DNA of 64,000 nt from positions 294-64,293 of the IMG/VR virus record IMGVR_UViG_3300027857_000018, one strand, 5' to 3'. Both the position numbers and the translations under genes were made by a program. The notes beneath the pieces were generated by a model. The model worked only from the letters and a program-made list of their open reading frames with translations, had not been told where the DNA came from and ran no database searches. Shown piece after piece: positions 4,239 through 60,699 of this stretch. Position 1 is the first letter of the stretch, and each line of letters begins with the position of its first letter. The stretch is from a virus (taxonomy: Duplodnaviria; Caudoviricetes).

Positions 4239-4319
4239 CTATTTGCCTATCAACGACCAAGCCACCAGCAAAAAGCCGAAGCAGGCTAACCCGCCAATCG
4301 CGATTCCCACGAAATGCAT
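4239..4319 (-). CDS. 26-aa hydrophobic membrane peptide (MHFVGIAIGGLACFGFLLVAWSLIGK)
   Basis: Not in ORF track. TGATG coupling, fills the intergenic gap exactly, frame conserved at 61954..62034. Confidence 0.6.
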   Translation of the reverse strand: MHFVGIAIGGLACFGFLLVAWSLIGK

Positions 4320-4922: not shown

Positions 4923-5221
4923 TTATGCCCCCTAAATCCGAACTCGCCCCGATCCGTCTTCATCTTCGCGACCTTTCCTGGCGGGTGTTTCAGCGGCGAC
5001 GCAGCAGGGATGGCTGTGGGTTTGTGCAGCTTGCGGTCCGCCTTGGCGTCGATCTTGTGCTCTTCGGAGGTGGACATGCGGCCGGCTTTCACCGCCTGCG
5101 TCGCGCGTGCCTTCGCGTTGGCTGCGTGACTGGCATCTGGAATTGGGTACGATCTATCAGGGCCGGCGAACGTCGATGCCGGAAGTTTCGCACGCGCCTT
5201 GGTGCTGAGAACTGCCATCAA
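4919..5221 (-). CDS. Basic phage protein (DUF6582-like)
   Basis: LSTKARAKLPASTFAGPDRSYPIPDASHAANAKAR motif, common in phage head modules. Confidence 0.7.
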   Translation of the reverse strand: MMAVLSTKARAKLPASTFAGPDRSYPIPDASHAANAKARATQAVKAGRMSTSEEHKIDAKADRKLHKPTAIPAASPLKHPPGKVAKMKTDRGEFGFRGHK

Positions 5222-5222
5222 C

Positions 5223-5447
5223 TTAGATCCTCTCTTGATCGCGGCTCAGAACACTTGCACGTCTTAGCGAACATCTCGCGGCTTCCACTCGTTGAATGAC
5301 AGGCCATTCCGGGTAGGCGGCTTCTCCTAGCCAAAAATAGAAGCTAGGCATCGGGCGCGGCAGCACGATTTCTCTTTTGTTGCCGGACTCATCCCAGCCG
5401 GAAACAAGAAGTGGCCTCTTCCAGGGGTTTAATTCTATGGCCATCAA
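5223..5447 (-). CDS. Hypothetical inserted gene (copy A only)
   Basis: Present between two genes that are adjacent in copy B; AT-richer. Confidence 0.5.
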
Positions 5448-5755
5448 TCCGCCCTTCCCTGTCGCACAAACCCATCCCGCATCGGCTCAGCCTTGTGCGC
5501 CTTCATGCGCCGATGCGCCGTGCTCTTGCTCGTGCCGAACTCTTTGGCCACGCTCGCGATCGTCTGGCCTGCGGCGTGCCGCTCGGTCATGTGGTGGCCT
5601 TGCGGGGTAGGCTTGGCCGCCTTCGGCAGCTTCCCGCCGGGATCGGCGTTGGCGAACTCCTGTCCCACCTTCTTCGGAATGCCGAGAATGGAATGTCCGT
5701 GCGCGGCTGCCTCCATGGCGCGGCGCTGCTTCTCAGAGACAGGTGGCATCAGCAA
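5444..5755 (-). CDS. Phage protein with C-terminal HTH-like segment
   Basis: [27 protein letters not shown] motif plus [20 protein letters not shown]; conserved in copy B. Confidence 0.7.
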
Positions 5756-5769
5756 CTCCTATCCAAACG

Positions 5770-5907
5770 AGCCTTTTATTGTTTCGCCTCGGACATGCTC
5801 AGGTCCGGCGCGGGCCAAGCTAGGGTCTTAACGCCTATACGGGGCAGCCACGGCTAGCCGCGCATCCCGTTCAGTACTCCCCTGCTGACATAGGCCACAC
5901 CCCTATG
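5770..5907 (-). ncRNA. Candidate structured non-coding element between terminase and head genes
   Basis: Several stems (CAUAGG/CCUAUG, ACGGG/CCCGU, GCGGC/GCCGU, CGCC-GGAC/GUCC-GGCG). Only about 3 differences from copy B. Confidence 0.35.
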
Positions 5908-6112
5908 CCGGTTCGCTGTCCCTCTCGACTCGTCTCATTTCCGCCGCCTCTGGCGTATGTACCGGTCGCAGCATTGCCGCCATCTCGCGCCCATGCTGCA
6001 TCGCGTCTCTCTCGTCTGGGAATGCCATCTCCCACCGACTTGCGAAGCCATCATCCCATTCGATGAGGACGCCCCAGCCTCCGCGATCAGGAAAGGTGGT
6101 GATTTTGGTCAT
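5903..6112 (-). CDS. Hypothetical phage protein
   Basis: ATGA overlap with TerL stop; conserved in copy B. Confidence 0.65.
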   Translation of the reverse strand: MTKITTFPDRGGWGVLIEWDDGFASRWEMAFPDERDAMQHGREMAAMLRPVHTPEAAEMRRVERDSEPA

Positions 6113-7857
6113 CGATCCGCATAAACCGGCGGCGTCGTATCCTCGGCGGAGTAGAGTGCTGGCGGAACTATTTCCATATCGTATATTCTCGACGTAGCGT
6201 CAATCAGGTCTTTTCGTTCCCCAAACGGGAACGTCCTGTACTCCTCGATCAGCGCCAGCGTCACGTCATAGATCCGGCCGTCTTGGTCCGTCGAGCGAAT
6301 CGCCTTCGCGACGAGGTCTGCCGAGCCGGCCTGCACCGTCGCCATCTGCAGCTTCGTCAGCCCCTCTACCGGGCGAAATTCAATCTCCCCGAACAGCTTC
6401 GACTCCTGGTCCGTCTCAACCCGCCACACCGCAGGCTTGCCATCATGCCACACGGCCAGCGGCAGATAGAAACGCGAATTGCGGAAGTCCGGTTCCAGGC
6501 GCTCCACCCGCTCCGTCTTGCTCTGCCCAGAGTCCCGCACCCAATTCAGCTCTTTGAGCGTAAACCAAGCCTTGTCGCGCTGCATCTGCTCCTGGAAGTA
6601 CTCGTCGTCAGATTGGGCGCCGTATCTTTCGTAGCCCACAGCGATGTGCCCAACGCCAACCGCGCGCGACCACTTACGGTACAACTCCCGCATCCGCACC
6701 CAGCGTTCCGATAACGTCATCCGGTGGCAATGGCCGTCGAGGAAGAATTTGGCGCCGTTCCTCGCCAGCCCTACCACCGCCATCGCCGTGTTGTCTGAGG
6801 TCGCCGATCGGCCGCGGCTTGGGTCGATCATGATGTAGACGTTCAGCGTCCGCGGACGCACCTCATAGGGTCGTAGCCATTCGGTGCGGAAGGTAGCATC
6901 ACTGTCGGCGAGCGGGTTCTGTAGGAGCTGCGCCGCCACAATCGTGCGGGACTGTGTCCGTAGCCGACGCTGCCACTCAGCCACCGAAAAAAGCACCGGG
7001 CGACCGTCCATTCGACCGTTATGCGTAGCAGGATAGATCCGTGGCTTGGCTGCTCCACGCTTGATGATCTCCGCGTAAGTGTCCGCGAGGGAATAACGCG
7101 TGCCGATATGCCGAGCGGCGCCCCCATATTCCGGTTGCACGCCCAGGTTGTCACTCAACCCCCATGCCTCCGTCGTCTTCTGCACCTGGTCAGGTGTCGT
7201 CACGCTCTCACGCGTCACCACGTCATCGTAGACTCGCAGGCGGAAGTGCTTGCCAGTGGGCTGTCCGTCCACCAAGCCCCACGCCTCAACCGTCGCCTCT
7301 TTCGGGTTGCCACGGCGCTTGACGATGATGCCGCCGTCCTCGCTCCACTTCGGCGATTCCTTCGCCGGGTCAGCGTAGAAGATATCCGGGTACGTCGCCT
7401 TTAGAACGTCGTTGATCTCGAGTTCAACCTTGATCTGCTTGAGAAACCCCTTCGCGATCGGCCGTGTATGCGAGAAGATCCCAACCGTTATCTCCGGATC
7501 GCGGCAAATATCCTGGATCGTCATGCCGAACGTGATTATACTCGACTTGCCGTGCTCTCGTGCCCATAGGTCCAGGTATCCGTCGCGGGCGGTCTCCACT
7601 TCCCGGCAGCGGTCGAACAGCCAGTCTTTGTCGAGGTCCTCCCGGCGCAACAGCACGACCAGCAAAAAGAATAGGTCGCGCCGGCCCAACTTCTGTCGTA
7701 GCTTGCCGACCTGACGGATCTTGCGCGCGTCGGCATGGCAGTCGCGGTAAAACTCCCAGCTAGCCGTCCGCGTCGGCGGGTTTGGCAGCACCCAGTCTTC
7801 GAAGCATGATTTCGTCTGCCCCATCCGGCTCCTCGGTCGGCTTTGGCGTCGTATCAT
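6109..7857 (-). CDS. terL: Terminase large subunit
   Basis: Walker A-like WAREHGKSS, Walker B RVYDDV, coupling motif IGTRY, nuclease IDPS...D...KDLIDA. True start may be GTG 7791. Confidence 0.93.
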   Translation of the reverse strand: MIRRQSRPRSRMGQTKSCFEDWVLPNPPTRTASWEFYRDCHADARKIRQVGKLRQKLGRRDLFFLLVVLLRREDLDKDWLFDRCREVETARDGYLDLWAREHGKSSIITFGMTIQDICRDPEITVGIFSHTRPIAKGFLKQIKVELEINDVLKATYPDIFYADPAKESPKWSEDGGIIVKRRGNPKEATVEAWGLVDGQPTGKHFRLRVYDDVVTRESVTTPDQVQKTTEAWGLSDNLGVQPEYGGAARHIGTRYSLADTYAEIIKRGAAKPRIYPATHNGRMDGRPVLFSVAEWQRRLRTQSRTIVAAQLLQNPLADSDATFRTEWLRPYEVRPRTLNVYIMIDPSRGRSATSDNTAMAVVGLARNGAKFFLDGHCHRMTLSERWVRMRELYRKWSRAVGVGHIAVGYERYGAQSDDEYFQEQMQRDKAWFTLKELNWVRDSGQSKTERVERLEPDFRNSRFYLPLAVWHDGKPAVWRVETDQESKLFGEIEFRPVEGLTKLQMATVQAGSADLVAKAIRSTDQDGRIYDVTLALIEEYRTFPFGERKDLIDATSRIYDMEIVPPALYSAEDTTPPVYADR

Positions 7858-16478: not shown

Positions 16479-17025
16479 GGGCGCCGCTCCAGCCAGCAGG
16501 GCTTGCCTTCCTCATATTCCAGCCACTGCTGCCAATAGAATAGCCCCCAGTTTATGGGGTACCATCCGCCGCGCAGCAATTCGCCGAAGCGTGTGAGTAC
16601 GACCAGACGGTGTTTTGGCTTGGCCATAACCGGATAGTGCCATTGCCATCGGTGGAGATGGTATGCATCTAACGCAGGGCAGAGATGCAATGCATCTTCT
16701 GATTAAATGGTTAGATGGAGTGCATTCTTCGCTCGTCAACAACAAGTTGGCCCAGCGCCTCGTGGTTCTGGGGCGGAGACAATAAATGGCTGCAAATCTC
16801 ATCAAACTCGCGAACTGCGAAGGCCGAACATTCGCTCTCGGACAGACTGTCGTCTGCCGCGGCGAATCCGAGGTTCCGAAGGTCGAAGGCACGATAATAT
16901 TTCCACCGCCGGCCCATTCCGCCCTTGCTCACCCGTGCCGGACGTGGCATAGTTGCGCAGACGACGGGACTTGGACGTCTCCCTCCCTGGAACTGGCTCG
17001 GCTGCCTTAGGCGCCGGGCCTTATT

Positions 17026-17406
17026 TTACGCCCCCCACCCCCTCGTCCTCGCCACCGCCCCCGACGCCAACACCACCTCCATCTCGATTGCCGACCCCCA
17101 CTTGCCAGCCCGCGTCCGGACCATCAGCGCCCCTTCCTCGGTCAGCGACTTCAACGCATGCGAGAGCGTATCGTTGCTCATATCCATCTCCATCGCAAGC
17201 GCGGACTTGTACGGCAGCACGCCGCCCACCGCAGCCTCCAGACGGGCCAGCACGCGCTGGGCGGACGAGCCGTAGCGGGGGCGCTGCGGAGGCGGTGGTG
17301 CGGGCTCCAGTGGCTGTGGTGGCGGGACGGAGGACCAGCCGGGCGGGAGCTGGGGGCGGAGGGATTGGCGGCGGAGCGCTTCAGCGGGCGACATCACGCG
17401 ACCCAA
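17026..17406 (-). CDS. Putative winged-helix protein
   Basis: YKSALAMEMDMSNDTLSHALKSLTEEGAL. Confidence 0.5.
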   Translation of the reverse strand: MGRVMSPAEALRRQSLRPQLPPGWSSVPPPQPLEPAPPPPQRPRYGSSAQRVLARLEAAVGGVLPYKSALAMEMDMSNDTLSHALKSLTEEGALMVRTRAGKWGSAIEMEVVLASGAVARTRGWGA

Positions 17407-49215: not shown

Positions 49216-50031
49216 TCAATCGTCCTCGTTCAGCCGATCCGGAACCGCGATCTGCACCGGCCCGAACGACTCGTGCTGGCATAGCCAGCCCAGCGCGAAG
49301 TCGCCGCGCACATAATGCGCGCGGTCGAGCTCCGCGATGATGCGCTCGTCGGACGCCTTGCCACGCTCCACGAAGATCATCGGCCGGAAGCGTTCGATGA
49401 TCTGCCGCGCCCCACGGAGTGCCTCGGCCTCCATGCCCTCCACGTCGATCTTGATGAAATCGCAGCGCGTCAACCCGAGATCATCAATCGCGATCATTGG
49501 CGTGCGGATCGTCAGCTTCTCATAATCGATCGGCTGCCCGATGTCCTCCGTCTTGCCGTCGGCGCGTGGCCGGAGCTCGAAAGAGCCGAGCGAGCCGGCC
49601 TTTGAGTAGTCGATCTCCGGTATGCTCATCGTGCCACTGCGGTTTGCGATGGCACCGTAGAAGGCCGTCACGTTGAACAGGTTGTTGAGCGCGATGTTGC
49701 CGCAGAGTGCATAGAATAGCCGCAACTGCGCCTCGACTGCGACGACGCTGCCCCACTTCGTCATCGCCCGCGCCATGACCGTCGTCATGATGCCGATGTT
49801 CGCGCCGCAGTCCACCACCACCACGCCGTTGCCGTTGCGCTTGCGCAAGCCGCGCAGCATCTCGACGACAATCTCCATCTCCTTCGCGTCGCATTCCCCG
49901 GTGTAGAGCACCTGAAACCCGACGCCGAAGCCGTAGTCTTCCTCGATTTCCTTCATGTCGAGATGGGAGACGATGAACGTGCCCTGGTTTGTGGCGGCGA
50001 GGACGAAGGGAAGGGAGCGCTGGGGAGGCAT
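49216..50031 (-). CDS. FkbM-family SAM methyltransferase
   Basis: VDCGANIG, IKIDVEGMEAEALRGA; TAATG-coupled start MPPQRS. Confidence 0.9.
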   Translation of the reverse strand: MPPQRSLPFVLAATNQGTFIVSHLDMKEIEEDYGFGVGFQVLYTGECDAKEMEIVVEMLRGLRKRNGNGVVVVDCGANIGIMTTVMARAMTKWGSVVAVEAQLRLFYALCGNIALNNLFNVTAFYGAIANRSGTMSIPEIDYSKAGSLGSFELRPRADGKTEDIGQPIDYEKLTIRTPMIAIDDLGLTRCDFIKIDVEGMEAEALRGARQIIERFRPMIFVERGKASDERIIAELDRAHYVRGDFALGWLCQHESFGPVQIAVPDRLNEDD

Positions 50032-51629
50032 TAGTCGGCGGCCTCGGCCACGATCTTCTTCTCCCTCTCCACCCGCGCCAGCACCTTCCCGATTACGTCC
50101 AGCATCAGCTTCGGCGCTACCCCCGACGCGCACAGCGCCGCTTTCGTCTCCGCATGCTGGTTGCAACGCGACCAATCGTAATGCAGCCGATGGCATGGAT
50201 AGCACGGCGCCATCTCGGGATCAGGCTGCAGCACAAGCGTCCGCTTCCAGTGCTTCGTGAGGTTCTCGTGCGATGAGTGCGAAAGGTAGATGACCTTCCA
50301 CACATTCTCAAAGGCCATTGCGTTGAGGATGCCTGTTTCGGGACCGACAACCACGTCCGCCATCAGCCCGAAGGTGAGACTCTCCCGCACCGTCTGCTGG
50401 CCGCAGAGCCCGTGCAGCCGAGATGTGTCGAAGCCGTCCGCACGGATGCGTTTCAGCAGCCCTTCCTGAATCGGCAGGCTTTGGATCTTGTCGCCGCAGA
50501 GCACGACATGGACATCGCCGCGCTCCATCAGCCACGCAATGACGGCTTGCGGATAACCGTAGATCTTGTGGGGACTCGATCCATTGATCGCCCAATAGAC
50601 CACGTACCCATCCATCGTGTCTCGGAGCGCCCGGGCCGAGGCCAGTTCCTCGGCGGTCGGATAGAATTTCGGCGCGAAATCATGCGGAACACCCGCCAGG
50701 TCATGCGTGCGTTCCAGGTAGTTGACGGTCCCCATCACCTTGCGCCGCACCAGCGGCGGCATCATGTCCTCGCGCCGTGTCGGCAGCGCCAGCAGCGATC
50801 CCTCGATGCTTTCGCAAAGATTGATGAACAGGTCATAGCGCTGCGACAGCGCATGCCAGTAGGGGCCGAGCTGCTCGTTGGGCACGTAGCCCGTCGCCTG
50901 GATCACCCACTCGTCGATGTGCGGGTCATGCCGCAGGATGTCCTGACCGCTTGGCGTGGTATTGTAAGTGACGTGGTAGCCCTGCGCCTTGAGCGCCGGC
51001 AGGATGGACGATGCGATGATCTGGTCGCCGATGGCGCCGTACCGCACGATGATGGCGCGTTTCTTGCCGTCTGGGTTGCGTTGCCAGAGATTTTCTGACC
51101 AACCAGCCTCCGTCTTACGCGCGACGATGAACAGGCTGTATTCGTCGCGTTCTTCGCGTTCCTCGGATTCGATGAGTTCCCAGCCAAGGCCCGTCATCCC
51201 ACGCAGGATCTTATCGATCTCCCCCGGAAAGATATCCCACTGATGCGCCGTGTTCGCGCCTTCTTCCCCGATACGCGGATAGAGATTGGCGCTCGGCACA
51301 TAGAGCACGAGATACCCGCCGACCTTGAGCACGCGCGCCCATTCCGCCAGCACAGCCGGCACGCGTTCGCGCTCGATGTCCTCCAGCGCATGCGACGAGA
51401 ACACCGCGTCCATCGTCCCGTCCTGGAACAGCGACAGGTCGGTGATGTCGCCGCGGATGCCCTGTGTGTTTTCTCCGAACGCCGAGCCGTTGTCGATGCC
51501 GATCACATTCGGCCAGACGGGCGCCATACCGCAGCCGAGATCGAGGACGCGACCTTGCAGGTAGTGGATGGCTGCCGCGGCAATTTTTGCCGATTCGAAG
51601 CCCTTGGATGTCTCGACCGACCAGACCAC
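50031..51629 (-). CDS. SAM-methyltransferase plus GT9-like glycosyltransferase fusion
   Basis: VLDLGCG, FSSHALED, VLKVGGYL; then IVRYGAIGD, HKIY, DVVVGPETG..N, PCYPCH. Confidence 0.88.
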   Translation of the reverse strand: MVWSVETSKGFESAKIAAAAIHYLQGRVLDLGCGMAPVWPNVIGIDNGSAFGENTQGIRGDITDLSLFQDGTMDAVFSSHALEDIERERVPAVLAEWARVLKVGGYLVLYVPSANLYPRIGEEGANTAHQWDIFPGEIDKILRGMTGLGWELIESEEREERDEYSLFIVARKTEAGWSENLWQRNPDGKKRAIIVRYGAIGDQIIASSILPALKAQGYHVTYNTTPSGQDILRHDPHIDEWVIQATGYVPNEQLGPYWHALSQRYDLFINLCESIEGSLLALPTRREDMMPPLVRRKVMGTVNYLERTHDLAGVPHDFAPKFYPTAEELASARALRDTMDGYVVYWAINGSSPHKIYGYPQAVIAWLMERGDVHVVLCGDKIQSLPIQEGLLKRIRADGFDTSRLHGLCGQQTVRESLTFGLMADVVVGPETGILNAMAFENVWKVIYLSHSSHENLTKHWKRTLVLQPDPEMAPCYPCHRLHYDWSRCNQHAETKAALCASGVAPKLMLDVIGKVLARVEREKKIVAEAAD

Positions 51630-51925
51630 TATCGCTGCCCCCGCAGAAACTTCTTCGCCGCTTCAACGCCATGCCACGTCTCGCCGTAGCTCTCGACCAG
51701 CGCCCGCAAGGCATTCCCGTCCATGGCCTTGAGTTCATCCTCCGCCGCTTCCTGGGGAACCGGCTCTTCCTCCACCTCCATCGCATCGAGCGGCTCGCCG
51801 TGCATGTTATAGGCGATGCCGTCCTGTTCGAGCGTCGTCGCAGGACCGCCATAGGTCGTGGCATAGTCCCGTGAGAAGTCGAGGCGGCGATTGCTCGCCG
51901 CCCCCTGCTTGAGTGCCAGCGCCAT
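51629..51925 (-). CDS. Hypothetical head-module protein
   Basis: Coupled start/stop. Confidence 0.6.
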   Translation of the reverse strand: MALALKQGAASNRRLDFSRDYATTYGGPATTLEQDGIAYNMHGEPLDAMEVEEEPVPQEAAEDELKAMDGNALRALVESYGETWHGVEAAKKFLRGQR

Positions 51926-52176
51926 CAGTCGCGCTCTCCGATCACCCGTCCATACGTGCAGTACCCCCGGAGCAAGTCAGCCTTCGATACGTCGGTCCCG
52001 CCATCCGAGAGCGTCGTGTCAAGCGGATAGCCCGGATCGTAGGACGCGTCGGCCACGCGGCAGGCCATGCCTTGGCCTCCGCGCATGTCGATGGGACGCT
52101 CGCCCTCCACGTCGCCTCCCTGTGGCCGCCCCGGCGGGCAGCACATGGAGTCTTCCCGTTCCTCGCGCCGGCTCAT
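51925..52176 (-). CDS. Hypothetical head-module protein
   Basis: Coupled; ADLLRGYC motif. Confidence 0.55.
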   Translation of the reverse strand: MSRREEREDSMCCPPGRPQGGDVEGERPIDMRGGQGMACRVADASYDPGYPLDTTLSDGGTDVSKADLLRGYCTYGRVIGERD

Positions 52177-52511
52177 TCGCGAGCCTCCCGACGCGAGCGT
52201 GCCGGCGCTGGAGGCGCCGCGGGCTTCTCGCGCCCGGCCTCCATCGCCGATTTGGCCCGCGGGCGCGTGCTGATCTCGTCGCGCTCCACTTCGTCCTCGG
52301 GACCGCCATGAGCGGACAGATGACCCTTCTCGCCGGTCACATAGCCGCCATCACCGAACTGCATCGTGTACGGATCCCAGTCCGGGCCGCCGCTGTCGTC
52401 CCGCGCAATCAGCTCATCATCGGGAATCAGCTTCGGCTTGATGTAGGCGGCATCTCCGCCGGCCCGGTAGCCATCCTGGTTGCGGAGGCTTCTCCGCTCT
52501 TCGCGTGCCAT
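52173..52511 (-). CDS. Hypothetical head-module protein
   Basis: Coupled. Confidence 0.55.
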   Translation of the reverse strand: MAREERRSLRNQDGYRAGGDAAYIKPKLIPDDELIARDDSGGPDWDPYTMQFGDGGYVTGEKGHLSAHGGPEDEVERDEISTRPRAKSAMEAGREKPAAPPAPARSRREARE

Positions 52512-52512
52512 T

Positions 52513-52971
52513 CTAGCCCCTTTCGGTTGGAATACGCGGCCGGGTCAGAAACCCGCGCGCTTCCCGGTTGCGGGAGCGGAACTCCCAATCGCGCTTCAGA
52601 CGATCGGCATTCCCCAAGTCCTCATCGGGATGCCGCGGCTGGCTGCTGCGCTCGACGTAGTTGCCCTTGTCATAAGCCGGATCTTCCGTGATGCCAGGGT
52701 CGCAATATCCCCGGATCACGTCCGCTTCGTCGATCCCGAACCCGTGCGCCTGGCGTTCGATGGCGGGGTTGTACCCGCCATCATACTCGGTTACGACCCC
52801 GCGGGGATTCGGGTACTGCTTGTCGTCGGACGTGTAGCTGCCCAGCAGGCCTTTGTCCCCGTAGCCGCGGTTGCCGCGATCGCCGCGCGGCACCTGTCGG
52901 AAGGTGCTCCGCTCCTCGTCCCGTTCGATCGGGCCGAAGATCGGAATCTGGCCGATGAACGCAACCATCAC
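52513..52971 (-). CDS. Hypothetical head-module protein
   Basis: Coupled; ADVIRGYC motif. Confidence 0.6.
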   Translation of the reverse strand: MMVAFIGQIPIFGPIERDEERSTFRQVPRGDRGNRGYGDKGLLGSYTSDDKQYPNPRGVVTEYDGGYNPAIERQAHGFGIDEADVIRGYCDPGITEDPAYDKGNYVERSSQPRHPDEDLGNADRLKRDWEFRSRNREARGFLTRPRIPTERG

Positions 52972-53366
52972 GGATTCCCCGAGAACGTCGCTGCCGGATC
53001 AACGTGCGCTTCGAAGATGATCACCTCCTGGCCCGCTGCATCCGCGCCCGACACCACGCCGAACGTCGAACCCGCCGCAAGCGTCAGATTCAGGTCGGCA
53101 ATGTTCACGATCGAGCCGACCGCGAGGGCCGACGTGATCGTGTATTTGCCGATCGATGTGGTGCCGCTGTAGTACGTATACGTGCCGGCGGCCGTGCTGA
53201 CTTTCGTCACCAGCACGCTCGCCGAACGCAGCCGCATCGCCGACACGCCGGAAGGGGGCGCGTAGGCATAGTACGTCGTCGTCGCAGCCCCACCGATCAG
53301 CGGCGATGTGATCGACATCCGCTGCAGGTAGGCGGGGTGGCCATAGTCGCCTTGTGCCGTTGCCAT
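52968..53366 (-). CDS. Putative capsid decoration / minor capsid protein
   Basis: Beta-rich, 132 aa, directly after the MCP stop with RBS. Confidence 0.65.
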   Translation of the reverse strand: MATAQGDYGHPAYLQRMSITSPLIGGAATTTYYAYAPPSGVSAMRLRSASVLVTKVSTAAGTYTYYSGTTSIGKYTITSALAVGSIVNIADLNLTLAAGSTFGVVSGADAAGQEVIIFEAHVDPAATFSGNP

Positions 53367-53378
53367 GTCCGTGTCCCC

Positions 53379-56300
53379 TTATGCCGCGCTCGCCCACTGC
53401 ACGATACGGGCCTGCTTGGCCTGTGTCTGCGTGAGGGCAAACCCACCCAAATAGTTGATATTGTTCACTAAAGCTCGCTAGGCTCTAGCCGCCGTTGCCA
53501 GCAGCTCATGGTTTCCCATGAGTCCAGACCATATCATCACCGGTTGCCCAGTGCTGTGCGCTTCCGGCCGCTTGGCCGTACTCCCCGAAGGGATGGTCGT
53601 TGCTCCTTCCCTCTTGCGAGGGCTCGGATCAGGATTGCCGGCGGCCTTACCCGCTGCGGTGTTCCCTGAGTTCACACAGTTTATAACGCGAGGCCTACTT
53701 AGGTTAACCACGCGATACCTTTGTTCCGACCATAGTCGGATGGGATAGCCTGTTTATTCACCGCTCTTCGCTGCGTAGCGGCCGTGCTTGAAGTTTCCGT
53801 GCCGTGTATTCGTCGGGCCGCCGGCAGCTTGCCTGCGGATTCCTTTGACGATCCGTCCCACCTGAGCCCGGGACAGGCCGAACATCTTCGCGACCACATA
53901 TTGCTGGTGCCCGTTCGCGACGAAGTGGCGGATTTCTGCCACGGTCTCGTCGGTCACTTTGCATTGGCCGTTTCGTTCGCCGGGGCAATGCCGGTCCTTG
54001 GCAACCATATCGGCCAAGTTATCGGCATGCGTTCCGAGGAACAGATGTTTCGGGCGCACACATGCATGGTTATCGCAGGTATGGCAGACTTCCAACCCAC
54101 GAGGAATGACGCCTTTGGCGAGAAGGTAGGAAACGCGATGAGCATACACTGGCATGGAACCCCATACCGCATGCACCCTCAACTGTCCGTATCCGTGACT
54201 CTTGCCTTTGGTCCATTCCCAGCAATCGTCGTCCTCCTCTGACGATCTGCTGAAACCAGATTCAAACACCTCAAGCACCGCTGCGGCTTTCACCGCAGAT
54301 TGGACTATATCTTCACCCCAGATCGCTTTGGGGGCTGGGCGCTTCCGCGGGGCTTCCCGCGTACTCGCTTGCGCGATAGTCTCTGAACCTTCCGGCATAT
54401 CCGAACCGGCTTGGCTGCTGATTGCCATATCGTGATTACCTCCGAAGACTGAGGCAACTTACCACGACTTAGGGTTTCCAGCAATTCACCCAGTGAATTC
54501 CCTAGCTCGAAGGCTAGGCTGCGAGGCGCCATCCACCACGCATCTCTTCAGGCACGACCAGTGCTTCGGCGACCGTGTCTTCCATAATCTTCGCGCCGGA
54601 TCGCAACTCCGACACCGCTTTCGCTGCTTACGGTTTCCCGTAAGATGGGACTATATCATGATCTCTGCGGAACGTCCACGGAGACCCTTCGCGCTTCGGG
54701 GGAGCATTCCCCCTACGGCCTTTCGGCCTAGTCTCTGGACCTTCCCCTTGCGGGGCTTGGCTGCTGATTGGCATAGGCCCGGTCAAAGCCCTTAGCTTTC
54801 CAGCAATTCACGAAGTTTTCAGTGCATCGTCGCCGATGCATGCGGCAAAGTTTTACCGAAGAAGAAAGCATTATCGCTTAGTCCATTCGTCCAGGCCGTA
54901 AAGTTAGTCGCGACCTGATAGGCACCGGAGCCGTAGTTTCCTTTCGGCACGTTCGTCTGTTCGATGAACCGCACGCCTTCGAACTTGCCGATTTCGCCGT
55001 TGTAGATCATCTGGAAGCCTTCGTCGCGGTATTGGTAGACGCTTTCCAGATCGTTCTTGACAGGACGCCACGTCGACGGCCACGCAATTCCGAAATACTC
55101 ATCCCCTGCATACGGGGGTATGTTCCTTTCTTTCATTGCGTCCACGATACTTTTGATATGGTTCTTGCGAAGATTGACGTTGTTCGTCGAGGTCGCAGTC
55201 CCATTGGTCGTCAGCGTGATCAGCGTCGTGTCGGTGCCGGCGGATGCCACCACCTTGAGCGGGGTGCTGTAGAACTGGTACCATGCTTGGCTGTCGAGGG
55301 CCTTTTTGGCGTCGTTCTTGAGCACTTTGTTGATTATTTCCTGTACTGGATGTTTGGACAAGTTGTCCAAGAAGCCAGTGTAAGGAACGGCGTTGCCCAA
55401 CTCAAGAACAGTTCCAGTTCCTTGAGCTATCGTGAAATTCGTTTGGGGCAGCGTCGAAGTCTCGGTAAGCGTCGTGCCTCCTGTTGCTACGTCGTTGTAG
55501 ACGTTCCAGGTGAACAACTGCGTCATGTTCATGCAGGATCGCTAATCCTGCACCGCTTTTAGCAGCTCACGGTTTCCCGCGAGACCAGATCATATCATGA
55601 CCCCATGAGGGCCCGGTGCGCTTCGGGGCGCTTGCCCCTACTCCCTTCCGGGATGATCGTTGAACCACTCGCCTGTCGGCCAAATGGCTGCTGATTGCCC
55701 AATCCTCACACTTTTCAGGCCATCGCGGCCGCCGTTGCCGGCCACGCTGTGGCAGTGAGGCTCTAAGGGTTTCCCAGCAATTCACACCGTTTGCACCGTG
55801 TCTTTCAACGCGGTGGGGCTAGATGTTAACCCTTGTGAAGTCCCTTGTCGGTGAAGTCTTTCGCATCCGTTGCTGTTACTTCGCCGCGTCACCTACGCGG
55901 GTCCAGACCCTTCCGGGCGGGGCGGCATTTCTGCCGCCCTCTCATACTCTCGCATGAGACCAGAGCACATCATGGCGCGATCGGTTCGAGCGCTTTGCGT
56001 GCGCTCTTGCCTCTCTCACCTCTCGCGTATGCTCGTTGAGGAACTCGGCGAGGCGATCGACTGTCTTGGATTTGGTAAGCCGTAGGAACTCCAGGATCAG
56101 ATCGACGTCTGCTTGCGTGTAGCACGTATTGTTGCGCTTTCCCTCGGTGCGGGAGCGCTCCATGCGGAGTTCGATCAGCCGAAGGAGGATCTTCCCTCTC
56201 TCGACCTTCTCTGTGCTGGCCAGCCTCGGCAGCATGATCGTCAGGAAGCGTTGCAGGTTGGTTGTCGTCGAAACGTGGATGAGTTTGATCATCCGGCCCG

Positions 56301-56747
56301 TCTCGCAGCCATACCGCTTGCTGACTTGCTGCTGCACGTGGAAGCCAACTCCGATTTCCTGCATCGTAGTGATGATCCGCTCGACGATTCCCTCGTCGGT
56401 ATTGCCGATCGTCGCACGCGCCTGAAGCCGGAACCCTCCGCGCTTTCGCTGCGGGAACACCATGAGAGCGATACAGCCCTCGCCGTCCATGATGCCTGCA
56501 AGCCACGAAAGCCTAGCTACTAAGCCGATTTCCTGCTGGTTGTCTGTATTCACCGGATTGTTCCTTATCAGGACCGGGACCTTACCAGATGTTCCAGCAT
56601 ATAGCGAGATTTTAGTTCTGCCTTGCGATGTTAACAGAACTGGCGAAACTTGCAGAGCGGCTGCACCGCCGTCCGCAAAATATCTGACAATTCGAGACTG
56701 TACATGTAGCCGCCAAGACTATTGACGGCCCAGAGTTGGCCAGCCAT
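53379..56747 (-). CDS. Major capsid protein (N4-gp56-like), spliced: join(56747..56634, 55867..55829, 55520..54855, 54582..54535, 53749..53707, 53455..53379), 328 aa
   Basis: Exons join in frame to MAGQLWAVNSLGGYMYS...KFRQFC|DAKDFTDKGLHKG|QLFTWNVY...GEIGKFEGVRFIE...AFFFG|EDTVAEALVVPEEMRG|AIPSDYGRNKGIAWY|YLGGF...WASAA*; follows the scaffold. Confidence 0.9.
53456..53706 (-). ncRNA. Group I intron 5 of MCP (251 nt, no ORF, apparent omega-A)
   Basis: P1 CGCGUGGU/GCCUCGCG with U-G; P4 CUCAGG/CCUGA; P7 GACCA/UGGUC; P7.1-7.2; P9 CAUGG-GAAA-CCAUG. Confidence 0.85.
53750..54534 (-). ncRNA. Group I intron 4 of MCP (785 nt, HNH-encoding)
   Basis: P1 UGCGUGGU/GCCUCGCA; AAUUGCUGGAAAC, AAUCAGCAG, UUCAGAGACUA, GAAGAUAUAGUCC consensus elements; ends AAACAG. 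Confidence 0.9.
53754..54428 (-). CDS. Intron-encoded HNH homing endonuclease
   Basis: CWEW...GYG...AHRVSY...CHTCDNHACVRPKHLFLGTHADN plus C-terminal HTH; start uncertain. Confidence 0.88.
   Translation of the reverse strand: MAISSQAGSDMPEGSETIAQASTREAPRKRPAPKAIWGEDIVQSAVKAAAVLEVFESGFSRSSEEDDDCWEWTKGKSHGYGQLRVHAVWGSMPVYAHRVSYLLAKGVIPRGLEVCHTCDNHACVRPKHLFLGTHADNLADMVAKDRHCPGERNGQCKVTDETVAEIRHFVANGHQQYVVAKMFGLSRAQVGRIVKGIRRQAAGGPTNTRHGNFKHGRYAAKSGE
54583..54854 (-). ncRNA. Group I intron 3 of MCP (272 nt, no ORF)
   Basis: P1 CGGU/GCCG; GAAUUGCUGGAAAG, AAUCAGCAG, CCAGAGACUA, GAUAUAGUCC; ends GAUUAUG. Confidence 0.9.
55521..55828 (-). ncRNA. Group I intron 2 of MCP (308 nt, no ORF)
   Basis: P1 GGGU/GCCC; GAAUUGCUGGGAA, AAUCAGCAG, UUCAACGAUCA, GAUAUGAUCU; ends CAUGACG (alternative in-frame G at 55524). 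Confidence 0.88.
55868..56633 (-). ncRNA. Group I intron 1 of MCP (766 nt, LAGLIDADG-encoding)
   Basis: P1 AGUUCUGU/GCAGAACU; AUGCUGG/CCAGCAG; UCAACGAGCA/GAUGUGCUCU; P3 UCUCGC/GCGAGA; ends CAACG. Confidence 0.9.
55942..56553 (-). CDS. Intron-encoded single-motif LAGLIDADG homing endonuclease
   Basis: WLAGIMDGEGCI motif, IGNTD; GTG start after AAGGA. Confidence 0.88.
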   Translation of the reverse strand: MNTDNQQEIGLVARLSWLAGIMDGEGCIALMVFPQRKRGGFRLQARATIGNTDEGIVERIITTMQEIGVGFHVQQQVSKRYGCETGRMIKLIHVSTTTNLQRFLTIMLPRLASTEKVERGKILLRLIELRMERSRTEGKRNNTCYTQADVDLILEFLRLTKSKTVDRLAEFLNEHTREVREARAHAKRSNRSRHDVLWSHARV

Positions 56748-56758
56748 TACTTAGCCCT

Positions 56759-57835
56759 TTATCTCATAGGCGCCAGTCCCCTCGCCTTCCGCATCTGCTC
56801 GACAATCTCCGAACTGGTCGGATACTGCCGGGTCGGTGCTGAGACGGCGCGACGATCGGCGGCCTGTGGGAGCGATGGAGCCGCACGCTTGCGTTCCAGC
56901 CGCGAGGGCTGCGCTGCCTGTGGGGCGGGTGTACCGTCCGGTGCCGGCTGAGACTGCGGTGGGACGAGACCGAGCTCGTCGCGCACGGTGCGTGCAGCCT
57001 CCCGATACAAATCCAGGTCGGATCGGAATACGCCCATCGCCGCGTCGCGCTTGCGCAGGTCGCCGAGGGCGAGCGCTGCAAGCTGGGAGCGGCGGTTATG
57101 GGCGGGTGTGAAGTCGTCGGGGCTGCCGAAGATCTCGGGGAACTCGGCGCCGACGGTCGCGAGGTTGTTCTGCAGGTCGATAGCCTGCCGCGTCTGCTGG
57201 ACGGCGGCGCGGATGATGGCGTTGGGATCGACCTGCGGCGTGGGAGCGACGCGGGAGACCGCCGTCTCAACGATACGCTGGATGGCCTTGGCGTTGGTTG
57301 TCTCATCGCCGTAGACGAGATCGCGCGCAAGGGCCTTAGCCTCGTCTTCGGCGAGGATCGGGCCGCGGGGTGGGGGCTGCGGGACGGGCGGGGGCGTCTG
57401 ACGGGGCTGCGTCTGCTGCCGCTGGAACTCCTGCACTGCCTTGCGGGCCACCAACCCATCGCGAGCGAGCTGGGCGGCCTGCTCGGGCGTGAAGTGGATG
57501 CCGTCGATGACGATGGTCTGCGGGGCTGCTGGTGTAGGCTTCGGTGGCTCAACCGCAGGCTTGGGGGCATCTGCGGGAGCTGCCGTTTCCAGCGCCCTCC
57601 GCGCCTCTTCTGTCGCGCGCTCTTCGGCCGCTGCGGCTTCTTCGGGGTCTGGCGTCGTCGCTTCCTGACCGTAGGCCAGTTCCAGCGCCCGGGCGCGCTC
57701 GCGGTTCTCGACGATCGACATCATCGCCTGTTCGCGCGCGGAAAGCTGGCGCTCGGCGGGGGCTTCGGTTGTCTCGGCCGGCGGCGCAGGCGGCAGGGTC
57801 GTGTCGGGAGGCAATTCCAGGACGGTGTCACTCAT
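56759..57835 (-). CDS. Capsid scaffolding protein
   Basis: Acidic/Pro-rich helical protein directly upstream of the MCP; C-terminal SEIVEQMRKARG. Confidence 0.8.
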   Translation of the reverse strand: MSDTVLELPPDTTLPPAPPAETTEAPAERQLSAREQAMMSIVENRERARALELAYGQEATTPDPEEAAAAEERATEEARRALETAAPADAPKPAVEPPKPTPAAPQTIVIDGIHFTPEQAAQLARDGLVARKAVQEFQRQQTQPRQTPPPVPQPPPRGPILAEDEAKALARDLVYGDETTNAKAIQRIVETAVSRVAPTPQVDPNAIIRAAVQQTRQAIDLQNNLATVGAEFPEIFGSPDDFTPAHNRRSQLAALALGDLRKRDAAMGVFRSDLDLYREAARTVRDELGLVPPQSQPAPDGTPAPQAAQPSRLERKRAAPSLPQAADRRAVSAPTRQYPTSSEIVEQMRKARGLAPMR

Positions 57836-58019
57836 TCGGCAGTTTCCTCAACGTCTCGCGCAGAATGAACCAATGGTTCTGAATGCCGCGCTTTGCATTC
57901 CCGATCTGTTCGGCGTCGGCCATGTCAGGGAAGTGCGGCGCAGAAAGCTTGATGACGCATTCCTTAATGATATCCATCGCCTCTTCGAGATTCTGACGCT
58001 CCGTTCGCGTCTCACTCAT
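57828..58019 (-). CDS. Hypothetical protein
   Basis: Overlapping neighbours. Confidence 0.55.
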   Translation of the reverse strand: MSETRTERQNLEEAMDIIKECVIKLSAPHFPDMADAEQIGNAKRGIQNHWFILRETLRKLPNE

Positions 58020-58338
58020 GTTCAGCGCGCTCGCTCATCTGTTCCGCCAGCAAGTCCGTCTCGGCAGCCGCTGCCGACTGGCGTACGGCCTCAATCGTCC
58101 GTATCGCCTTCACACTGCGATAGACCCGCGCCTGCAGGTCCATGATCACTCGATGATCGCCAAGATCGGCCTCCGCGAACTCCAGCAGCGCCAGTTCCGC
58201 GTCGCGCTTGTACGCCGCGTAGATGACCGCCAGCGGACGGCTCTCGCGCAGTTCCGCCTCGAAATCGATGCCGAGGCGGACGGCTTGTAGGCGCGCATCG
58301 TTGGCGATCTGTTCGGAGAGGCGTGCGTCGGGGGTCAC
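58012..58338 (-). CDS. Small helical head-module protein
   Basis: Between portal and scaffold. Confidence 0.65.
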   Translation of the reverse strand: MTPDARLSEQIANDARLQAVRLGIDFEAELRESRPLAVIYAAYKRDAELALLEFAEADLGDHRVIMDLQARVYRSVKAIRTIEAVRQSAAAAETDLLAEQMSERAEHE

Positions 58339-58520
58339 AACCGTTCGTTCACAAAATCAATAATGCACCGCCGCAACTCATCCTCGGAGAAATCCCCGCC
58401 TTCGCCCGACGGCCGATAGATGCGAATCTTGCCCATGCCGAGGTCGGTCATGATGACGCGGCCGGGGCCGTCGCCAAGGACCATGCGCGGTGCAAGGATG
58501 GGAATGTCAGGCGGGAACAT
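58335..58520 (-). CDS. Hypothetical protein (MFPPDIP...)
   Basis: Overlaps the portal stop; homolog truncated by window edge at 1..103. Confidence 0.55.
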   Translation of the reverse strand: MFPPDIPILAPRMVLGDGPGRVIMTDLGMGKIRIYRPSGEGGDFSEDELRRCIIDFVNERL

Positions 58521-60699
58521 GCGGCGCCCCCTGCGGCTTTCCAACCACCACCGGCTGCGGATGCATGGCCTCATGCTGCCGCGCCACATGCTGCCCGAAC
58601 AGATCGGCAGTATGGCCCAGCAGCGCGCGGAATGTCTCGGCTTTCTCGCTCATCTGCGTGCGCTGCATTTCCAACTGGTCGCTCCTGGCATCCGCCTGTG
58701 CCGCGATCTGCCTCTCCTGGATCTTGCCCTGTGCCGCGATCTGGGCTGCCTGTACGCGTGCCTGCGCTGTTTGCTGGGCAATCTGCGGGTTTTGGCCGCC
58801 TTTCTCTCCCTGCTGCATCGCCTGGATCGCCTTCTGGAAGTCGAACCCAGGCACCACGAACCGATCGCCATCCTTGTAGCCTGCCAGCGCGAACACCTCG
58901 TGCAGTACTTCCTCGAAGTTGATGCCCTGCGCCAGCACGGGCCCGAAGAACTTCTGCAGGGATTCAGCTGCCATCAGGAAGTTGCGCATCTTGATCGCCG
59001 GGTTGGTCGCGCCGATCCCGACATTCACCTTGACCGTCGCGTCCTCATCCAGCAACGCATCGGTGACAGCCGAGATGCCGTACTTTTGCTCGATCTTGGC
59101 GCGTTTGCCGCAGATGGCGAGCACCGTCTGGTCTGTCTCATAGGCCCGGATCAGATGCACCAACTGCCGCAACAATGGCTCAACGAAACTCTCGGCGAAT
59201 ACCCGCAGTTCGTACTCGTTCATCCCGGACGCCTGCCCCGACATCAGGTGCATGCCAGTCGCCGACTGTTCCTGGATCTGGGTCGATTGGACGGATGAGT
59301 TCGAGAAATCCCCCACCAGTTCGTCAAAGTCGAGATTGATCCGATCCTGTTCGGCGTATGCCGCTTGCGATGGCTCCGGCGGACGGTCCCACACGATGTC
59401 CGTCTGCGGGTCCTTGGTGACGACGACCTTCCCAGGGATGAACGTCCGCACGTCCACGACCTCGATGCCGACGCCCTGCTTGATGAACTGCCGCGGCATC
59501 AGCGACATTTTCATCTGATCAAAGCGCAGGTTCCAGTCGTCATTCGTCGCCCGCTGCAGATCGCGCACGAGCTCGATCTTGCTCGCTGGGTATGTCTTGT
59601 GCGTCTCCACCACCACGAAGCCGATCGTGAATGGCCGCATGCCGTGGAGGTAGACTTCCTCCAATGGCCGCGGATTGGTCAGCATCGCCGCCTGCCGGCC
59701 AAGCGTGTAGAAATGCCAGTCCCGTCCGCCCCAGCGGATGATGTTCTCGTGCACCCAGACGATATCGAAGTCCTTGGGCTTCCACGCGTCGTGGTCCTTG
59801 CCCGGCACGCGTCCCGGCTCGCGTGCCCGTCGCGTTGTGTCATCGTCGATGTCCGTCGCCGATCGCATGGCGGAGTCCGGCATCGGGAACCACTCGCCCT
59901 TGTCCATCATCTCGCGCACGTCGGAGACATACATTGCGATCTGATAGATGAGGTAGGGCGATGCTTCGACGACATTGCGCCAGTCAGCGCCGGGTTCGAA
60001 GCGGATATTTTCCATCGGGATCAGGTCGACAACGGGCTTGTCGTGGACCTTCTCAATGTCGTCCTCTTCGCGGATCTGGATCTGGCCATCCGCGCCGCGC
60101 AGCATCGCGCCCGTGTGGGGGTCGATCGCCGGCACGATCCGCGGGCCATGGTTGACCTCCTCGTACTTCCAGTAGGCTTTCGCCGCACACAAACCCATGA
60201 CCTCGCCATCCTGGCGCGCACCGACCAGGGTGAGGAACCACGGAATACCGCCCTCGCCCGTCGGCTTGGTCAGGCGGTATTGGAGCAGTTCTTGAAGGAC
60301 GGCGGCGCTTGCGACCTGTTCCTTGTTATCCTCGTCAGCGGGCTGGATGTTGACGACGTCCTCGTTAGAAAAGAACGCCGCCGCCGTCTGCGCCTCCGAC
60401 TTCCGCACCATGGCTCTCGACTTCGGCCGGAACAGCGTCGTGCGATGGCCGTATTCGCGCGAGTAGTACTTGCTGTCGATCGAATGCAAGGATTGGAAGG
60501 CGCGGAGGCTTTCGGTCCAGCGGGCGCGTTTGCCACTGTTGACCCAGTTGGTTGACGCTTCGTAGCAGTCGCGCGCGAGCTTCTGTCCTTCCTCGGGGGA
60601 AAGATAGCCACGGCGCGCGCCTCGATCGCCAGGAGCATCGGGTTCCCACCCTCCCGGACCATCCTGGATAGAGGGAGGCGTGAGTTCGCCGTCAGGCAT
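58507..60699 (-). CDS. Portal protein (copy B)
   Basis: 730 aa, a handful of substitutions versus copy A. Confidence 0.88.
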   Translation of the reverse strand: MPDGELTPPSIQDGPGGWEPDAPGDRGARRGYLSPEEGQKLARDCYEASTNWVNSGKRARWTESLRAFQSLHSIDSKYYSREYGHRTTLFRPKSRAMVRKSEAQTAAAFFSNEDVVNIQPADEDNKEQVASAAVLQELLQYRLTKPTGEGGIPWFLTLVGARQDGEVMGLCAAKAYWKYEEVNHGPRIVPAIDPHTGAMLRGADGQIQIREEDDIEKVHDKPVVDLIPMENIRFEPGADWRNVVEASPYLIYQIAMYVSDVREMMDKGEWFPMPDSAMRSATDIDDDTTRRAREPGRVPGKDHDAWKPKDFDIVWVHENIIRWGGRDWHFYTLGRQAAMLTNPRPLEEVYLHGMRPFTIGFVVVETHKTYPASKIELVRDLQRATNDDWNLRFDQMKMSLMPRQFIKQGVGIEVVDVRTFIPGKVVVTKDPQTDIVWDRPPEPSQAAYAEQDRINLDFDELVGDFSNSSVQSTQIQEQSATGMHLMSGQASGMNEYELRVFAESFVEPLLRQLVHLIRAYETDQTVLAICGKRAKIEQKYGISAVTDALLDEDATVKVNVGIGATNPAIKMRNFLMAAESLQKFFGPVLAQGINFEEVLHEVFALAGYKDGDRFVVPGFDFQKAIQAMQQGEKGGQNPQIAQQTAQARVQAAQIAAQGKIQERQIAAQADARSDQLEMQRTQMSEKAETFRALLGHTADLFGQHVARQHEAMHPQPVVVGKPQGAPHVPA

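Follow-up and report, generated by a model that had tools for sequence, protein, structure and literature searches.

A phage major capsid protein gene in six exons separated by five putative group I introns, the last of which ends in A

Where is the major capsid protein of a ~64-kb phage from a soil metagenome encoded when no open reading frame (ORF) of the expected size is present? The question is raised by IMG/VR record IMGVR_UViG_3300027857_000018 (64,293 bases, rated 100% complete), of which positions 294 to 64,293, nearly all of the record, form the 64,000-nucleotide (nt) stretch analysed here and called the window. On the minus strand a gene for an SU10-type portal protein (Pfam, E 2e-36) is followed by a 358-amino-acid (aa) ORF (57835..56759) and then by the capsid gene locus. 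The ORF list for positions 50000-60000 contains no full-length capsid ORF after the 358-aa ORF, and the longest ORF at the locus, 55532..54819, encodes 237 aa. A model-made reading of the sequence alone, the original prediction, had proposed that standard gene callers would report only this fragment, and the window's own gene call in the protein database is indeed the 237-aa P0001. The answer supported here, with a probability that we put at roughly 0.85, is that the locus is a single major capsid protein gene cut into six exons by five group I introns that would be removed by splicing.

The six-part structure of the gene is confirmed. When the intronless homologs P0002 (329 aa) and P0003 (328 aa) were compared by tblastn with positions 53000-57000 of the window, six colinear minus-strand pieces were returned, with coordinates that coincide with those proposed for the exons in the original prediction. 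Joined by a script, the segments of 114, 39, 666, 48, 43 and 77 nt give a 987-nt frame of 328 codons and a stop codon, with no internal stops, as had been claimed. The joined product aligns with no gaps to each of four 328-aa homologs, with 283/328 identities to both P0003 and P0006, 284/328 to P0005 and 276/328 to P0017, and is identical to P0002 at 298 of 329 positions. The exons are intact, free of stops and frameshifts, and share 86-91% identity with homologs. In 55 related viral loci, the capsid sequence is present as a single full-length match in 43, as a partial match at a contig end in 6, and is interrupted in 6; 18 intronless loci that are at least 75% identical align across all five junctions. 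The intervening sequences constitute 2382 of the 3369 nt (70.7%), and the 5′ exon ends in T in all five cases. The last base of the intervening sequence is G for introns 1 to 4, in line with the four gaps ending in G that were first reported, and A for intron 5. Contigs from a DNA sequencing run are identical in sequence to the window with no joints, with a word depth of ~105-190 across the locus and no variant contigs, but this run may be the source sample and is not independent support.

The identity of the protein is documented by several comparisons. With the 237-aa piece as query, 2589 proteins are found at E <= 1e-5; among the 120 best of these, 29 are exactly 328 aa long and several carry the Joint Genome Institute name 'N4-gp56 family major capsid protein'. 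Exon 3 matches the major head protein family phrog_1357 (E 1e-15), and a homolog in a Vibrio phage is annotated as a major capsid protein. Against TIGR04387 (N4-gp56 family), P0002 scores 40.1 bits (E 2.6e-10) and exon 3 alone 38 bits, below the cut-off of 60, and by these scores the protein appears to be related to the N4-gp56 family but is not an equivalog by the NCBI threshold. An HK97 fold, as anticipated in the original prediction, is predicted via P0002, a homolog that is 91% identical to the joined product and on which, rather than on the joined product, the fold run was made. Given an alignment of 70 diverse sequences from a full-library profile search, which replaced a 13-sequence alignment that gave a predicted local distance difference test score (pLDDT) of only 35.8, the P0002 model has a mean pLDDT of 82.8 and a predicted template modelling score of 0.81. 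A Foldseek search with this model returned the capsids of Pan3, NF5, N4 (9e99), GP4 and HK97 with probability 1.00 and E values from 4e-13 to 1e-9.

Four of the five intervening sequences are recognized by the Rfam group I intron model, RF00028. Introns 3 (92.5 bits, E 1e-23), 4 (83 bits, E 8e-21) and 5 (54.5 bits, E 3e-12 over 53743..53505) score above the gathering score of 50 bits, and intron 2 is matched over 55863-55566 with E 5.8e-10 in a 4.2-kb search. No other match to this model was found in the 64-kb genome, either at the gathering level or down to E 0.05. For intron 3, the splice-site U of the model falls on 54855, which is also where the protein comparison, made independently, puts the junction. 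Introns 2 to 5 have a common build, with P3 to P9 present in full-length model alignments, and inspection of these alignments reveals in each an insertion of ~30 nt with two short hairpins between P7 and P3′. Extra P7.1 and P7.2 helices between P7 and P3′ are the hallmark of subgroup IA, and by this insertion, with the subgroup as usually defined, introns 2 to 5 would be IA-like. The P3 helices have compensatory changes at three positions (UUC/GAA, UGG/CCA, UGU/ACA and GGU/ACC among introns 2 to 5), and the alignments also read as compensated in P4 and P7 of intron 5 and P7 of intron 2. The P4 and P7 motifs quoted in the original prediction are found in introns 2 to 4, with compensated variants in introns 5 and 2, but in intron 1 only P4 is present and P7 is degenerate.

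A P1 helix with a U-G pair at the splice site, claimed for every upstream exon, was identified by script at all five junctions (Table 1). The Rfam placements of P1 for introns 2 and 5 lie inside exons, contain non-canonical pairs and are off the junctions defined by the protein; they were rejected as misalignments in favour of the script-derived P1. In intron 3, P1 is formed by CGGU-AAA (the hyphen marks the splice site) with UUUGCCG and is directly adjacent to a 4-bp P10 (GAAG/CUUU). Intron 4 has a 7-bp P10 (GCUAUCC/GGAUGGC), also directly adjacent to P1. Among the four IA-like introns, pairwise identity is 51-58% (51% for introns 4 and 5), and each has equal or higher identity to introns of other phages (60-64%), arguing for separate acquisitions rather than recent intragenic duplication, and duplication of one intron within the gene was rejected for this reason. 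In a blastn search, similar intron cores were found in 185 phage records; some of these cores are located in genes for DNA polymerase or terminase of phages in culture.

That the intervening sequences are inteins, that they are bypassed by programmed frameshifts or that the fragments are translated separately is scarcely credible. The exon frame meets a stop 0, 0, 11, 6 and 2 codons into introns 1 to 5, respectively, the intervening sequences match a ribozyme model, the micro-exons (13-16 codons) have no start codons, and the two endonuclease ORFs, both open, are out of frame with the exons.

Table 1. Exons, putative introns and intron-encoded ORFs of the capsid gene, in order of transcription. 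Identities and E values for exons are from tblastn; sites are numbered by flanking residues.
Feature	Coordinates (strand)	Length	Description	P1	Same site in other sequences
Exon 1	56634..56747 (-)	114 nt	aa 1-38; ATG at 56747; ends ...UGU; 35/38 identical to P0002, E 9e-19		
Intron 1	55868..56633 (-)	766 nt	LAGLIDADG-type group I (putative); ends in G	8 bp	Site 38/39: L097; P0105 begins with foreign residues before DAKDF
Intron-1 ORF	55942..56553 (-)	203 aa	From GTG; single-motif LAGLIDADG endonuclease/maturase candidate		
Exon 2	55829..55867 (-)	39 nt	aa 39-51; 13/13 identical to P0002, E 5e-5		
Intron 2	55521..55828 (-)	308 nt	ORF-less, IA-like; P7 GAUCA/UGAUC; ends in G	6 bp	Site 51/52: P0028, P0035, P0064 and P0117 begin with intron-derived residues
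Exon 3	54855..55520 (-)	666 nt	aa 52-273 and first codon of next junction; match spans aa 52-275 at 55520..54852, 88% identical to P0002, E 5e-148		
Intron 3	54583..54854 (-)	272 nt	ORF-less, IA-like; ends in G	7 bp	Site 274/275: P0067 reads through into ...KTLPRASVTVH, similar to KTLPHASATMH of the window
Exon 4	54535..54582 (-)	48 nt	aa 275-290; ends GCGUGGU; 15/16 identical to P0002, E 1.5e-5		
Intron 4	53750..54534 (-)	785 nt	IA-like core 54559..54281; ends in G	7 of 8 positions paired, one U-U mismatch	Site 290/291: L060, intron with related HNH ORF
Intron-4 ORF	53754..54278 (-)	174 aa	From GTG at 54278; HNH homing endonuclease		
Exon 5	53707..53749 (-)	43 nt	aa 291-304 and first base of Tyr305; ends GCGUGGU; matched with P0002/P0003, E 1e-6		
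Intron 5	53456..53706 (-)	251 nt	ORF-less, IA-like; P7 GACCA/UGGUC; last base A	7 of 8 positions paired, one U-U mismatch	Site 304/305: Vibrio phage 1.232.O
Exon 6	53379..53455 (-)	77 nt	aa 305-328 and TAA stop; match spans aa 306-329 at 53453..53382, 22/24 identical to P0002, E 6e-10		

Several points weigh against interpreting the locus as a capsid gene with five functional group I introns, or against parts of that interpretation. Intron 2, with 46.8 bits, is just under the gathering score. Intron 1 is not matched by RF00028, even when searched alone at E 10, its P7 is degenerate, with three G-U pairs in the register homologous to that of a related metagenome contig, L108, and its J8/7 departs from that of canonical relatives. 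Intron 5, with its terminal A, may splice poorly or elsewhere. No RNA runs carrying the locus sequence are listed, and splicing and its efficiency are therefore inferred. A second related contig, L097, has intron 1 without intron 2, and L108 has a LAGLIDADG intron at aa 42/43, also without intron 2, observations that count against the introns having been spread together by co-conversion. Finally, the viral loci were collected by a scan with peptide patterns, one of which extends across the exon 2/3 junction, so that the 43 uninterrupted loci among 55 are biased to intronless alleles. The expectation that RF00028 would identify the intervening sequences was borne out in full for introns 3, 4 and 5, nearly so for intron 2 and not for intron 1, the fifth group I intron being recognized instead by family comparison.

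The P1 of intron 1 consists of AGUUCUGU paired with GCAGAACU, with the U-G pair at the splice site. P3 is formed by UCUCGC with a GCGAGA located ~600 nt downstream, across the ORF, and P4/P4′ is UGCUGG/CCAGCA. There is no insertion between P7 and P3′ as in introns 2 to 5. The 5′ core and 3′ tail of intron 1 are also present in L060, L061, L097 and L108, and 49 metagenome loci match a gapped pattern for its P4-P5-P4′ region; a search of viral contigs with an exact 23-nt motif from the intron found only two contigs, both already known. The P3 pairing was evaluated in 45 loci, with 2 loci that gave non-intron matches (L138, L139) and 5 duplicates both set aside, and was scored when the P3 of a locus had a full hexamer complement that followed a GACUA-like P7 by no more than 12 nt and preceded a UAGUC-like P7′ by no more than 90 nt. 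Such a complement was found in 26 of the 45, hundreds of bases downstream across the ORF, whereas 200 control trials with the P3 of another locus gave 4.9 on average and never more than 10. There are 14 distinct P3/P3′ pairs among the 45 loci, and the 19 misses include truncated contigs and loci with a one-base shift in the P3 register.

In L097, the codon boundary before DAKDFTDKG is likewise occupied by an intron closely homologous to intron 1, after which aa 39-329 are uninterrupted so that the 13 codons of exon 2 are contiguous with the rest of the gene. The 5′ cores of the two introns are nearly identical, with the same guide sequence and a shared tail (...AAGUAACAG...G), and their ORFs are, by eye, about two-thirds identical. 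A G-C to U-A change in P8 is compensatory between them. In both, inspection shows a G-U rich P7, GGUCU with GGGUC or AGGUC, and a J8/7 that departs from that of the family. Five of eight family members tested (L093, L095, L102, L115 and L141) are located within matches to 23S ribosomal RNA (rRNA), and RF00028, at the gathering level, matches none of the eight. As the model misses all of these relatives, some of which are in 23S rRNA genes, its failure to match intron 1 is not evidence against a group I identity. With the LAGLIDADG introns of bacterial 23S rRNA genes, intron 1 shares the P3-P4-P5-P4′ core, an ORF start within P5′-P4′ (MNTDNQQE) and a tail of the form ...GUAACA...G; unlike them, it is located in a protein-coding phage gene and has a P7 and a J8/7 that no longer conform to the family consensus (GACUA/UAGUC). 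By these features, intron 1 is assigned to a group I family with LAGLIDADG genes whose members are also present in bacterial 23S rRNA genes. Given its P7 and J8/7, intron 1 may depend on its maturase-like ORF or may be impaired.

Two relatives are of interest in their own right. L108, a metagenome contig of 1351 nt, encodes a capsid homolog that is 93% identical over aa 1-42. Its LAGLIDADG-type intron follows DAKD and is thereby displaced downstream by four codons relative to intron 1, with which it has the P3 hexamer in common; its P7 (GACCA/UGGUC) is canonical. In the IMG/VR contig L061, a different capsid-like gene (2950-6376) has RF00028 matches of 59, 46, 29, 28.5, 25 and 18 bits within ~3.5 kb of a region of structural genes, and a LAGLIDADG intron, a 39-nt stretch and a further intron are arranged there in a manner resembling intron 1, exon 2 and intron 2 of the window, with putative exon boundaries.

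Intron 5 presents a different puzzle. A terminal G is needed for exon ligation by group I introns, but just one junction recovers the motif G-I-A-W-Y-Y-L-G-G of the protein, and there the last intron base is A (53456). There is no G within the last 10 nt upstream of this junction, and the contig set from the DNA run noted above has the same bases. Alternative sites were enumerated in all frame-keeping combinations of a 5′ U with any terminal base, and none both ends in G and restores W-Y-Y-L-G-G. As the P7 G-C pair at the guanosine-binding position is intact in intron 5, established chemistry predicts that exon ligation at a terminal A would be very slow. In favour of the A junction, there is a 10-bp P10-like helix in which the guide region pairs with the exon from 53454 (base +2 of the 3′ exon), and an intron at the same codon position in Vibrio phage 1.232.O has a tail that can be aligned with that of intron 5 up to the A, but which ends in G. 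It is conceivable, although doubtful, that intron 5 ligates its exons at the terminal adenosine, with the 3′ site held by the 10-bp P10, which is unusually long, or with the help of a protein. Our literature search for naturally occurring introns that lack the terminal G yielded mechanistic papers only; such introns are, to our knowledge, rare.

Two other explanations for the terminal A were considered. The first, which we regard as rather unlikely, is that intron 5 retains the same 5′ site and ends at a nearby G, the likeliest being G53468, to give a protein of 332 aa with five residues in place of Tyr305 (W-LNNIN-YLGG). Mutations of the terminal G are known to activate cryptic G sites, and in the enumeration G53468 was the only in-frame choice that keeps U53707, ends in G and adds a short insertion. 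By inspection, introns 2 and 3 have 13-nt tails past their last hairpin, and G53468 and G53466 are located 10-12 nt past the equivalent hairpin of intron 5. Opposed to this, the W304 and G308 columns have just three residues between them, with no insertion, in 70 of 70 homologs, down to ~28% identity, and the segment is a beta-strand in the P0002 model. The 10-bp P10-like helix fits the exon from 53454 and not the sequence past G53468, and the tail of the Vibrio phage intron aligns with that of the window up to the A.

The second explanation is that the capsid gene is defective, with intron 5 and perhaps intron 1 no longer spliced and the contig derived from a non-viable or helper-dependent variant. 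Both the terminal A of intron 5 and the degenerate P7 and J8/7 of intron 1 would be accounted for in this way, but the completeness of the record, the conservation of intact exons and the two open endonuclease ORFs would then be unexpected, and the depth and lack of variant contigs in the DNA run, which may be from the source sample, fit a replicating population. We therefore consider a defective gene improbable.

In addition to their proximity, introns 4 and 5 are connected by the sequences that define their 5′ splice sites. The last seven nucleotides of exon 4 and of exon 5 are identical, GCGUGGU (54535-54541 and 53707-53713), and so are the guide heptamers of the two introns, GCCUCGC (54521-54527 and 53688-53694), which in each case pair with a U-U mismatch. 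Outside these sequences, introns 4 and 5 (51% identity) resemble one another no more than other pairs do. The perfect target for this guide is GCGAGGU, an Arg-Gly codon pair that is possible at site 290, which suggests that the guide of intron 5 may have originated at the site-290 target of intron 4. Alternatively, the overlap of guides could reflect ectopic reverse-splicing between two sites that are 43 nt apart. From the shared guide and exon heptamers, skipping of exon 5, or alternative exon-skipped products, would be predicted.

Both of the long introns contain an ORF with similarity to homing endonucleases. The intron-1 ORF has the motif LAGIMDGEG and is weakly similar, in a phmmer search of the PDB, to I-PanMI (E 6e-4) and to I-OnuI variants, with I-CreI aligned over residues 15-174 at E 0.08. 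It scores 15.4 bits (E 0.036) against Pfam LAGLIDADG_1, under the cut-off of 23.1, and matches phrog_5046 with E 4e-11. Distant relatives (25-32% identity) are encoded in two viral contigs, both in interrupted structural genes, and in one of these, L060, the gene is of the same capsid family. The N-terminus MNTDNQQE is common to all three ORFs. The first codons of the intron-1 ORF overlap the conserved P5′-J5/4-P4′, with the P4 motif UGCUGG located just before, and it is because this coding sequence overlaps a conserved RNA core that the N-terminus is kept in otherwise divergent proteins. The intron-4 ORF scores 41.6 bits (E 1e-10) against Pfam HNH_3 (cut-off 24.8) and matches phrog_1872 with E 1e-30. 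It is located between P9 and the 3′ splice site, with its stop codon 4 nt before the junction, and its frame is also open from an ATG at 54428, within the ribozyme core; at the 3′ end it overlaps CAGCGAAGAGCGGUG, which resembles the segment that follows P9 in intron 3. Relatives of this ORF are present at 29 viral loci, and at least 4 of these (L060, L062, L065 and L073) are in or beside capsid genes of this family, with the HNH intron of L060 at the site of intron 4 and that of L062 one codon downstream of the site of intron 5.

Taken together, these features are consistent with the single capsid gene of this phage having been colonised by five independently acquired mobile group I introns. 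A late transcript would fold into five ribozymes, in each of which GTP would attack at the P1 U-G pair followed by attack at the 3′ splice site, and five such self-splicing reactions would join the six exons into the 328-codon mRNA. The in-frame stops located 0-11 codons into the introns would halt ribosomes on unspliced RNA. The LAGLIDADG gene is located after P4′/P6 of intron 1 and overlaps the core, and the HNH gene is located after P9 of intron 4.

The five introns form two clusters, with one endonuclease gene each, separated by the 666-nt exon. Intron 1, with the LAGLIDADG gene, is 39 nt from intron 2, and introns 3, 4 (with the HNH gene) and 5 are separated by 48 and 43 nt. As each cluster surrounds one endonuclease gene, the ORF-less introns could be spread by co-conversion when the endonuclease of a neighbour cuts an intronless allele in a co-infecting relative. 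As L097 and L108 demonstrate, such linkage is not obligatory. Splicing in vivo, homing and co-conversion are what we infer, whereas the colinear exons, the ribozyme cores, the families of the endonucleases and the polymorphism of relatives were observed directly.

Comparison with relatives supports the capsid gene being an intron hotspot, as had been offered as one possibility in the original prediction. Relatives carry subsets of the introns present in the window, or none, and at least 12 insertion sites are apparent within the capsid family; sites not used in the window are near aa 14, 35, 42, 54, 94, 190, 238, 295 and 305/306. Each of the six interrupted viral loci (L001, L039, L042, L045, L046 and L047) has an RF00028 match in the gap. 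The residues beside the insertion sites of the window (D39, G51, Q52, G274, E275, R289, G290, W304 and Y305) are invariant in 13 of 13 close homologs. The base that precedes the junction is U in 9, 2, 8, 5 and 18 of 18 intronless alleles for sites 1 to 5, respectively; at sites 1 to 4 it occupies a wobble position, where the intron-bearing allele has U.

The original prediction had also suggested that the introns might provide a splicing-dependent control of capsid assembly. No observation directly favours such a timer or checkpoint on capsid production, selected for the benefit of the phage, beyond the confinement of the introns detected in the genome to a single late gene and the in-frame stop that follows each 5′ splice site. 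With 43 of the 55 loci uninterrupted and L097 without introns 2 to 5, with introns that are unrelated acquisitions, and with two of these carrying homing endonuclease genes, the signature of selfish spread, a checkpoint seems very improbable. The accumulation of introns is best read as a pile-up of selfish elements at conserved sites of a conserved gene, and not as regulation.

Database entries for the family have further irregularities. Many of the 150 best representatives at 50% identity start or end near aa 95 and aa 180-197, and some (such as P0143, P0147, P0151, P0167 and P0170) have 230-300 extra N-terminal residues. This suggests that intron ORFs have been fused in frame to a downstream exon by gene callers, although contig truncation is also possible. 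Elsewhere in the window, positions 16952-17026 on the plus strand match the SorX small RNA family with 27.5 bits (gathering score 46.6, E 0.017), probably by chance.

Capsid-gene introns have already been published, and the window is an extreme case of a known phenomenon. The statement in the original prediction that phage group I introns are reported mostly from nucleotide-metabolism, replication, terminase or lysin genes is dated, as two papers describe introns in the capsid genes of lactococcal phage Tuc2009 and mycobacteriophage LittleE (PMC3706429) and a split capsid gene in a crAss-like phage (PMC7886860). In Tuc2009 and LittleE, the capsid gene has one group I-like intron with a homing endonuclease gene, and splicing in LittleE was established by reverse transcription PCR and N-terminal protein sequencing (PMC3706429), whereas five introns are predicted in the window from its sequence. 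The nearest counterpart is the crAss-like Zeta-group genome OLRF01000054, metagenomic and without RNA proof, for which PMC7886860 describes a capsid gene in five fragments with four insertions and 14 introns across the genome. In the window, by contrast, the gene is far shorter, at 987 nt, yet contains five insertions, each with an identified ribozyme core, and micro-exons of 39-48 nt, with all introns of the genome in the one gene, and its lineage is unrelated to the crAss-like phages, with an SU10-type portal, an N4-gp56-like capsid and a soil origin. Jumbo gut ('Jug') phages of 360-402 kb (PMC12880540) have an average of 18.5 introns per genome, HNH and LAGLIDADG endonucleases and essential genes in 2-3 fragments, with splicing confirmed by metatranscriptomes for 37 of 76 predicted introns; their introns are distributed across many genes, unlike those of the 64-kb window. 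A competitive role for an intron endonuclease has also been reported (PMC11620839).

Our searches of the open-access literature, supplements excluded, turned up neither a bacteriophage gene with five introns nor any intron in this capsid family, and no denser group I array in a bacteriophage gene, the nearest being the four insertions in the crAss-like capsid gene. Three group I introns separated by short exons, with exon skipping, were reportedly described by Landthaler and Shub in 1999 in orf142 of Staphylococcus phage Twort. The window is similar in having several introns, short exons between them and a risk of guides pairing with the wrong exon, but has five introns rather than three. Vibrio phage 1.232.O (MG592596, L001) has a capsid of the same family, with 51% identity, and an RF00028 match of 83 bits at the position of intron 5. 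Here, too, the Tyr305 codon is split behind its first base, and the 3′ tails of the two introns are similar. This intron differs from intron 5 in its terminal G and in the perfect pairing of its guide with CGUGGU, and the two cores are 54% identical. The record annotates a 290-aa capsid protein, NVP1232O_08 (L001 3706-4120 for the region compared); the RF00028 match comes after the codon for Trp304, and a final exon (YLGGFG...SAS) that the annotation misses is present at ~4030-4120, ahead of a gene annotated as an HNH nuclease. The same may hold for the 27 other Vibrio phage records; 1.232.O is the one that was checked.

What is new here is the puzzle of intron 5 and a modest link between the intron family of 23S rRNA genes and phage capsid genes. 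For the most abundant protein of the virion, gene callers provide a 237-aa fragment, many database homologs are likewise truncated at intron sites, and even in the cultured Vibrio phage 1.232.O an intron and the last exon are unannotated. The locus offers a natural test bed for the folding of neighbouring ribozymes, for the avoidance of cross-reaction between them and for the hitch-hiking of ORF-less introns with the endonuclease of a neighbour. Intron 5, if it does splice without a terminal G, would bear on the rules by which group I introns choose their 3′ splice sites.

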